A stretch of 64,000 nucleotides of DNA, from sequence record PQ249395. One strand, given 5' to 3'. The translations under genes were made by a program, and so were the position numbers. The notes below the pieces were generated by a model. It had not been told where the DNA came from and ran no database searches. It was given only the letters and a program-made list of their open reading frames with translations. This document shows positions 23,501 through 24,218 of this stretch, piece by piece; the stretch's first letter is position 1; each line of letters begins with the position of its first letter. The DNA comes from Escherichia phage Pu-Krd-SF1.

Positions 23501-23512
23501 CTTTTTCTCCAA

Positions 23513-24218
23513 AGGGCCGAAGCCCTTATAAATTAACTGTTTTTCTAAGTATTCTTAGTTTGTACATTGATAATCCAGTAGCTTTAGAAGCATCTTTCAT
23601 ACATTTATACTTAACACCATTTACTTCTATAGGTTTAGCAGCTGGGTTATTAGCTCCTGAATTATCTGGCATGTTATCTTTAATTTTCTGAATAGATTTA
23701 GCGGAATGTTTCCTTCCATACATGCCGTTATTTTTACCCGATTGATTGATTGAATGTAATCTTTTAGCTTCTTCAGTCCATTTCGTTGGGTTCATTCTTT
23801 TAGTTTTACTAATTTTATTTCCCCATGTAATTGGACGACTTTTCATGAGTTTTGACATATATTGTTTATGTTCTTCCGTATGGTGTTTTCCGTAAAATGG
23901 ATTACCTTCGCCGGATTGAAGTTCTGCCATTTTACGACGTTCCCATGCGTAAGATTTATTGACGTGTCTTTCATGAGTATTTGAATTCATCCCCATACAT
24001 ATAACAGCTTTAATTATACCGTAATGGTTTGGATGAATTTTAGCTAAAAGTTTATGGGCTATAAAATGTTCTTCAGCCGTTAGTTCTACTAAATTACACT
24101 TATCATTTGTACCACCCATACATCTAGGAATTATATGATGTGTTTCAGTGTATCCATTAAGGCGAGCCCGATTCTGGGCTCTATTAATTAAATTATCATA
24201 TATTAATTTATAATTCAA
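23513..24218 (-). mobile_element. Homing-endonuclease (HNH) gene insertion between uvsW and uvsW.1
   Basis: Free-standing HNH ORF wedged between two core ORFs, overlapping uvsW stop, with hairpin at its 3' end. Confidence 0.6.
23526..24218 (-). CDS. HNH homing endonuclease (Mob-like, NUMOD-type repeats)
   Basis: 230 aa; N-terminal YTETHHIIPRCMGGTNDKCNLVELTAEEHFIAH; GxxNxxYGxxH repeats; 4-nt overlap with uvsW stop. Confidence 0.8.
   Translation of the reverse strand: MNYKLIYDNLINRAQNRARLNGYTETHHIIPRCMGGTNDKCNLVELTAEEHFIAHKLLAKIHPNHYGIIKAVICMGMNSNTHERHVNKSYAWERRKMAELQSGEGNPFYGKHHTEEHKQYMSKLMKSRPITWGNKISKTKRMNPTKWTEEAKRLHSINQSGKNNGMYGRKHSAKSIQKIKDNMPDNSGANNPAAKPIEVNGVKYKCMKDASKATGLSMYKLRILRKTVNL

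Follow-up and report, generated by a model that had tools for sequence, protein, structure and literature searches.

The helicase gene uvsW of Escherichia phage Pu-Krd-SF1 appears to have acquired a mobile neighbour at its 3' end. In the stretch of 64,000 nucleotides (nt) analysed here (sequence record PQ249395; hereafter the window), which comes from a T6-like Tequatrovirus, an open reading frame (ORF) of 230 amino acids (aa) stands between uvsW and uvsW.1, and we consider it likely that this ORF is a functional homing endonuclease gene, a free-standing member of the T4 Mob (HNH) family, which has colonised the end of uvsW. Over positions 23000-25000 the window matches Escherichia phages Pu-Krd-SF5, -SF6 and -SF7 at 100% identity and T6 at 98.6%, and the order along the minus strand is a segE-like GIY-YIG gene, uvsW, the 230-aa ORF and uvsW.1. 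The genes at the junction are the following:

23526..24218, minus strand: putative endonuclease ORF, 230 aa, with a TTG start and a TAA stop that is the native uvsW stop (ORF list and sequence).
24215..25723, minus strand: uvsW helicase gene, 502 aa, host of the insertion (Pfam UvsW_N at 8.4e-44, ResIII, DEAD and Helicase_C).
23270..23500, minus strand: uvsW.1, 76 aa, with an ATG start at 23500 (Pfam UvsW-1, E 1.7e-30).

The last of these replaces a mechanically listed 80-aa version of uvsW.1 with a TTG start. A first-pass annotation, made without database searches, had placed an HNH gene between uvsW and uvsW.1, and this position holds; the gene is, however, on the minus strand and starts with TTG rather than ATG. 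The same annotation described a 230-aa ORF with an HNH motif and NUMOD repeats, and such an ORF is indeed present and intact. Its protein contains the HNH motif YTETHHIIPRCMGGTNDKCNLVELTAEEHFIAH and two GxxNxxYGxxH units (GEGNPFYGKHH and GKNNGMYGRKH), and Pfam recognises two NUMOD3 modules (E 7.6e-14, 51.8 bits against a cut-off of 20.4). Likewise, the description as Mob-like was borne out by an N-terminal nuclease domain that shares 51% identity with T4 MobE across 106 aa (E 2e-32) and by a match to PHROG 655, 'homing endonuclease' (E 3.9e-60). This Mob-type domain opens with MNYxKIY and carries E.HHI.P.C.GG...N...L...EH..AH, and the residues of its catalytic motif HH...N...H..H (H28, N42, H51 and H55) are invariant in 35 homologues. 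While Pfam I-TevI_DNA-bd stayed under its cut-off on the single sequence (14.7 against 27 bits; E 0.029), a profile of the 35 homologues compared with the Protein Data Bank matched the DNA-binding domain of I-TevI (1i3j, E 8.5e-8) at profile positions 150-226 and, for the nuclease, the HNH domain of McrA (E 3.8e-4). An AlphaFold2 model (mean confidence score, pLDDT, 84) has a compact N-terminal domain followed by an extended, helical C-terminal half, with residues 197-229 forming a strand-strand-helix-helix unit at pLDDT 86-94. The I-TevI zinc finger is lacking, residues 100-230 holding a single Cys, and the protein shows neither a NUMOD4 module nor a clear structural match to I-HmuI.

We mapped the insert by alignment against the empty sites of resequenced T4, T2, AR1, teqskov and OES_C-1, which divides the junction into four parts:

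23541..24229, minus strand: insert, 689 nt relative to insert-free Tequatroviruses (empty-site alignments).
24215..24229, minus strand: substitute uvsW tail GAG GTT AAA CTT TGA (EVKL*), supplied by the 5' end of the insert (sequence).
23526..23540, minus strand: displaced native uvsW tail ACA GTT AAT TTA TAA (TVNL*), the same sequence as at the 3' end of uvsW in insert-free phages.
23512..23527, minus strand: native hairpin AAGGGC-UUCG-GCCCUU directly 3' of the stop codon, identical in insert-free phages (folded).

The boundary of the insert is uncertain by 3-4 nt because GAAA is common to both ends. Where empty sites read ...AAT TAC GTA ATG AAA ACA GTT AAT TTA TAA GGGCTTCGGCCC TTTGGAGAAAAAG ATG..., the window reads ...AAT TAT GTG ATG AAA GAG GTT AAA CTT TGA ATT...[ORF]...CTT AGA AAA ACA GTT AAT TTA TAA GGGCTTCGGCCC.... 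An insertion into the uvsW/uvsW.1 pair, which the first-pass annotation had suspected, is thus apparent from the empty sites, in which the two genes are 25 nt apart, but its point lies within the uvsW coding sequence, 15 nt upstream of the native stop, and not in the intergenic space. The two ends of the insert are fitted into uvsW in different ways. At the 5' end, the host gene receives a new C-terminus (EVKL* in 6/6 insert-bearing phages and TVNL* in 5/5 insert-free ones), whose codons hold a GAGG ribosome-binding site 7 nt upstream of the endonuclease TTG, and the new uvsW TGA stop overlaps this TTG by 4 nt (cTTTGAat), an overlap that had been reported correctly. At the 3' end, the endonuclease ORF brings no stop codon and instead continues in frame through the displaced native tail (KTVNL*) to the original uvsW stop. 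The hairpin that follows had been rightly placed just before the uvsW.1 ATG, but it is host sequence outside the insert: we rejected it as part of the element since it is identical in insert-free T4, T2, AR1, teqskov and OES_C-1. It is followed by GGAG and the uvsW.1 ATG, and this start context, GGAG-N6-ATG, is the same as in empty sites.

To learn how common the element is, the uvsW/uvsW.1 junction was counted with an artificial 'empty-site' query in 497 Tequatrovirus phage records. The endonuclease ORF is present at ≥95% nucleotide identity in about 47 of them, with carriers in at least 10 RefSeq species records (T6, PST, G8, G28, ACG-C40, UFV-AREG1, EC121, PYPS2T, ZN18 and pSe_SNUABM_01), and identical empty sites are found in T4, T2, AR1 and teqskov. 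Rather than the universal presence that would mark a core gene, we thus found absence from about 90% of records, and on this distribution the ORF is mobile, as had been proposed, and not core. Related genes occupy the same junction elsewhere: in Jiaodavirus Klebsiella phages such as Roth17 (68-70% aa identity, 13 of ~150 records), where the site of JD18 is empty; in Gaprivervirus (SP18 and UPEC01; 57-59%, 9 of ~40 records), where that of VR7 is empty; and in Morganella phage Rgz1 and two metagenomic contigs (54-55%). Acinetobacter phage fHyAci03, which has no uvsW.1 after the endonuclease gene, and Yersinia phage vB_YenM_P8 share the N-terminal nuclease directly after uvsW but have unrelated C-terminal halves, which suggests that, at this site, different DNA-binding modules may be swapped onto a constant nuclease head. 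The two genes lie at positions 2501-3295 of the fHyAci03 locus and 588-1373 of the P8 locus. The borrowing of the host's end recurs as well: in SP18 and P8 the endonuclease ORF ends in IKQVEI*, as uvsW itself does natively at the empty VR7 site, and in Roth17 it ends at the native CTATGA, which overlaps the uvsW.1 start. A stop/start overlap with uvsW (ATGA or TTGA) was present in all 8 lineages found beside this gene. We considered whether such an overlap is an automatic by-product of the MN... start of the family, and rejected it as a family property: although 45 of 61 distinct loci of the wider family in viral metagenomes start with xTGA, only 3 of the 61 have a long upstream ORF ending there, hence the arrangement is peculiar to the uvsW lineage and a small number of others.

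The occupation of exactly this junction in many genera could also be read in the opposite direction, namely that an ancestor of the endonuclease split a single uvsW+uvsW.1 gene and that the empty junctions are secondary losses, as modelled on mobE in nrdA of phage Aeh1 and mobA in the T4 topoisomerase gene. The SP18 insert is flanked by a 17-nt direct repeat, ATTAAACAGGTGGAAAT, which could mediate its precise loss, and UvsW.1 is said to have been described by Kerr et al. in 2007 as a small helical domain resembling nucleic-acid-binding modules at helicase C-termini. Yet our searches gave no helicase-fused UvsW.1. Among 75 word-indexed UvsW.1 homologues, all of 52-96 aa, there was no fused UvsW-UvsW.1, and a profile search of 1.84 billion representatives returned 36 matches without a helicase fusion, the longer of which (~260-300 aa) have the UvsW.1 domain at the N-terminus of unrelated proteins. 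The split is moreover present in all T4-like genomes examined in PMC1524935, and the Tequatrovirus insertion, being inside uvsW and upstream of its native stop, must postdate the split. This alternative was therefore left unsupported and is very improbable. One of the ~260-300 aa proteins with an N-terminal UvsW.1 domain has, as a separate observation, a weak cytidylyltransferase-like match. It should also be noted that, at locus positions 2770-2790, the T4 reference NC_000866 reads AATTTAATAAGC, in contrast to the AATTTATAAGGGC of resequenced T4 (2790-2810 of its locus) and of all relatives, and that this difference produces a spurious 587-aa fused UvsW; the record still holds an old sequencing error that joins uvsW and uvsW.1 (PMC1524935; PMC6486255).

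A further line of evidence comes from uvsW itself, where a distinctive haplotype accompanies the insert:

24230..24346, minus strand: uvsW 3' haplotype linked to the insert (sliding identity and haplotype comparison).

It consists of six synonymous changes (24236-24265), the sequence GGACTT (24278-24283) and a patch (24308-24346) that encodes VVSKSKTSSKKYS in carriers and VKPKSANTKKKYV in non-carriers. When the window is compared with insert-free phages, sliding identity drops to 52-62% and 82-86% solely within the 150 nt of uvsW beside the insert, while the flank on the uvsW.1 side keeps 96-100%. The haplotype is fixed in 6/6 carriers and the alternative one in 4/4 typical non-carriers. OES_C-1 (locus positions 2600-2830) is insert-free and combines the VVSKSKTSS patch with a final 70 nt of uvsW of the insert-free haplotype, which makes it a natural recombinant, of use for mapping immunity determinants. 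The same left/right asymmetry separates Roth17 from JD18, where the final 45 nt of uvsW differ by at least 7 silent changes that leave the protein as it is. Between the window and T6, the endonuclease gene and 150 nt of proximal flank are identical (synonymous divergence, pS, 0.000), with a pS of 0.106 in uvsW 150-588 nt upstream. Taken as sequence patterns, these left-flank haplotypes are the expected mark of co-conversion and/or self-immunity; they are compatible with homing but are no proof of it.

Selection on the gene bears on two other explanations. All six Tequatrovirus copies examined are 693 nt long, start with TTG and end in KTVNL*, with no frameshifts or stops, and their ratio of nonsynonymous to synonymous divergence (pN/pS) is 0.04-0.18 at synonymous divergence up to 0.15; judging from these ratios, the ORF is under purifying selection. 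This is hard to reconcile with an inactive relic, that is, a once-mobile gene that no longer cuts and persists by linkage to essential neighbours, such as T4 I-TevIII. In favour of a relic, the ORF protein has no known experimental activity, its weak TTG start suggests low expression, and many T4 mob genes were never shown to be active (Table 1 of PMC2988022). On the other hand, both the low pN/pS across copies with up to 15% synonymous divergence and the open frame in 6/6 copies speak for maintained function, as does the invariance of H28, N42, H51 and H55 across the homologues, and we regard a relic as improbable. Somewhat less improbable, if still unlikely, is that the nuclease has been domesticated and is kept for the benefit of the phage, either by excluding competitor genomes or by acting in DNA recombination and repair with UvsW, rather than for selfish homing. 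The tight coupling to uvsW would then reflect a functional partnership. Strong purifying selection would fit this explanation, as would the uvsW adjacency and 4-nt overlap kept across two phage subfamilies and a synonymous divergence comparable to that of the host gene, which suggests long residence. However, about 90% of close relatives do well without the ORF, its nearest relatives lie at unrelated loci such as nrdA/nrdB and gp13/gp14, and its modular tail of NUMOD3 and helix-turn-helix is typical of sequence-specific homing enzymes; the different C-terminal half of P8 at the same site also fits target-site specialisation better.

If the ORF is a functional homing endonuclease gene, its life cycle could be pictured as follows. 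The gene would be transcribed late, together with segE and uvsW, and ribosomes that terminate on uvsW would translate it at low level (termination-reinitiation). The protein would combine a MobE-like HNH nuclease head with two NUMOD3 helices and an I-TevI-like helix-turn-helix tail and, by analogy with I-TevI, would bind a long bipartite site spanning the end of uvsW and the start of uvsW.1 of insert-free phages. There it would introduce a nick or a double-strand break in or near ...TTTAATTACGTAATGAAA|ACAGTTAATTTATAAGGGC.... In a mixed infection, the break would be repaired from the insert-bearing genome, copying the gene and about 120-140 nt of adjacent uvsW. The carrier would be immune because the insert splits the site, whose left half has six silent changes and an altered tail.

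As regards expression, the nearest exact match to a T4 late promoter lies upstream of segE and uvsW:

26372..26379, minus strand: T4 late-promoter consensus TATAAATA, upstream of segE-uvsW (pattern search; nearest upstream exact match).

An exact search for TATAAATA gave no match between 23021 and 26371 on either strand, and the copy at 26372..26379, whose promoter function we infer, is probably the source of the transcript that carries the endonuclease gene. A promoter of the ORF's own was considered and rejected: there is no exact TATAAATA, and sigma-70-like matches number 12 compared with 16.5 in shuffles. Coupling of the ORF to uvsW, which the first-pass annotation had put forward, is plausible on these grounds and is strengthened by the overlap kept in all 8 lineages but rare in the wider family, and the combination of stop/start overlap, weak TTG start and embedded GAGG would fit termination-reinitiation. 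Termination-reinitiation has been proposed for mobE, whose stop/start overlap and internal terminator are a precedent (PMC2988022). Among the lineages beside uvsW, the three with TTG starts have GAGG or GGTGG 4-7 nt upstream, inside the uvsW tail, while the five with ATG starts have no clear ribosome-binding site; a strong site only with TTG starts looks like compensation, at n=8 lineages.

Another possible element of this architecture lies within the 5' coding region of the endonuclease gene:

24164..24181, minus strand: GC-rich hairpin GAGCCC-AGAAUC-GGGCUC in endonuclease codons 13-19, without a U-tract (folding).

GC-rich hairpins of differing sequence occupy the equivalent codons in the uvsW-junction relatives, in a second Mob-like gene of the window (44082..44894) and in T4 mobE. 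A hairpin at this position was found in 9/10 T4-type Mob genes folded, and in 6/10 it was more stable than in synonymous recodings (p≤0.007); in the second Mob-like gene it is a 9-bp GC hairpin with p=0.007. Enrichment was weaker among 78 diverse family members, 24% of which have z<-2 at the hairpin position compared with 8-10% in control windows. A partial intrinsic terminator has been described within the 5' coding region of mobE (PMC2988022), and we take the T4 mobE hairpin at codons ~12-19, located by folding, to be that terminator. The hairpin may serve as an attenuator or stand in for the 3' hairpin of the upstream gene. More tentatively, the Mob cassette could be a plug-in that replaces the 3' architecture of the invaded gene, bringing a surrogate tail, an xTGA stop-in-start, a hidden ribosome-binding site and a position-conserved GC hairpin ~35 nt past the new stop, a reading that we find possible but doubtful. 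Were it true, the hairpin would be a selected RNA element common to T4-type Mob genes, beyond mobE, and would substitute for the displaced 3' hairpin of the host gene or attenuate, while the conserved stop/start overlap would let the lineage persist at the uvsW end across genera.

The closest known system is T4 MobE, and the resemblance goes beyond the nuclease fold. Both proteins share MNYxKIY..LI.RAQ and ETHHIIPRCMGG...NLVELTA.EHFIAH in the N-terminal nuclease domain, both genes have a predicted GC-rich hairpin early in their coding region and are sporadic among T-even phages, and the mobE start, too, overlaps the stop of a conserved upstream gene (UAAUGA in T4; PMC2988022). MobE differs in being a free-standing protein of 141 aa, encoded between nrdA and nrdB, without NUMOD3 and without an I-TevI-like DNA-binding tail; its gene has an ATG start, an intergenic position and nrdB as target, whereas the ORF here has a TTG start inside the uvsW end. 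The mobE hairpin is followed by a U-tract and is a partial terminator, unlike the hairpin in the window, and the activity of MobE has been shown experimentally, that of the protein described here being predicted. I-TevI of the T4 td intron differs, with a GIY-YIG catalytic domain, a zinc finger and an intron-encoded gene, compared with an HNH domain, no zinc finger and a free-standing gene. T4 mobA with the gene 60 bypass cassette and Aeh1 mobE in nrdA also land in the coding sequence of a conserved gene of DNA metabolism and bring extra sequence by which the host gene keeps working (PMC2988022). These two insertions split the host protein into two essential pieces, whereas at uvsW the change is confined to the last four residues, where EVKL takes the place of the displaced TVNL, whose codons now end the endonuclease ORF. 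Extra sequence in the mobA cassette reportedly also protects against self-cleavage.

Several observations weigh against a functional homing endonuclease gene at this site and have to be set beside the evidence above. The Pfam HNH match is under its gathering cut-off (16.2 against 21.4 bits; E 0.012), and the hairpin of the window's own gene reaches only p=0.09 against synonymous recodings. The left flank of SP18 is essentially identical to the empty-site allele, from which it follows that not every lineage needs the cluster of silent changes, which could be no more than the trace of a divergent donor; in SP18 the insertion alone must disrupt the target. At synonymous sites the endonuclease gene, with values up to 0.15, has diverged to a similar degree as uvsW, so that much of its spread in Tequatrovirus could be vertical, combined with ordinary recombination. 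Lastly, a literature search found no cleavage, homing or expression data for the ORF protein or close relatives.

The surroundings of the junction hold further features of interest. On its 5' side, uvsW is preceded by a second nuclease gene:

25807..26343, minus strand: segE-like GIY-YIG gene, on the 5' side of uvsW.

Compared with T4, this gene carries a CAA-to-TAA nonsense change that leaves 178 aa instead of 205 aa, and uvsW is thereby bracketed by two endonuclease genes, the truncated segE-like one and the HNH ORF. The target of SegE is uvsW (Table 1 of PMC2988022). SegE thus resembles the HNH ORF as a free-standing endonuclease gene flanking the same host gene, at the inh/uvsW junction, and differs in being a GIY-YIG enzyme of unrelated nuclease fold on the 5' side. 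The HNH ORF is separate from uvsW and in a different frame, and is embedded in neither an intron nor an intein: an Rfam scan of 22800-26600 gave nothing credible and no group I or II intron match at E≤1, which leaves the label 'group I intron endonuclease' of some GenBank records unsupported. Beyond uvsW.1, between the converging uvsW.1 and uvsY.-2, positions 23215-23265 contain a GC-rich inverted repeat, GGCCC...GGGCC, with A/T runs on either side, which a simple terminator scan did not flag. A conserved bidirectional terminator is mentioned in PMC1524935, and the inverted repeat is probably that element. Elsewhere in the window, the second Mob-like HNH gene (44082-44894, minus strand; 270 aa) shares 39% identity with the ORF in the N-terminal 110 aa; its ATG and the upstream stop overlap as ATGA, and its 3' end overlaps the downstream ORF. 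The neighbours between which it lies, at 44891-45820 and 43310-44113, are probably gp13-like and gp14-like, by resemblance to T4 gp13 and gp14.

Our literature search found no description of an endonuclease gene at uvsW/uvsW.1, although the ORF protein is already annotated generically as a homing endonuclease in GenBank. The labels 'group I intron endonuclease', 'mobD' and 'mobE' given to this ORF there are better read as an uncharacterised Mob-type free-standing HNH endonuclease. With two mobile nuclease genes around uvsW, recombination-based phylogenies of the region will be biased. The element also illustrates how a mobile gene can occupy the end of the coding sequence of a conserved repair gene almost without cost, since four residues are swapped, the stop codon of the host is borrowed and the start of the downstream gene is untouched. 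Overall, the T-even model system would gain a well-defined and apparently active homing endonuclease lineage, whose insertion site, empty site, linked haplotype and natural recombinant OES_C-1 are mapped to the nucleotide, which makes homing, target recognition and translational coupling directly testable in crosses of T6 with T2 or T4.

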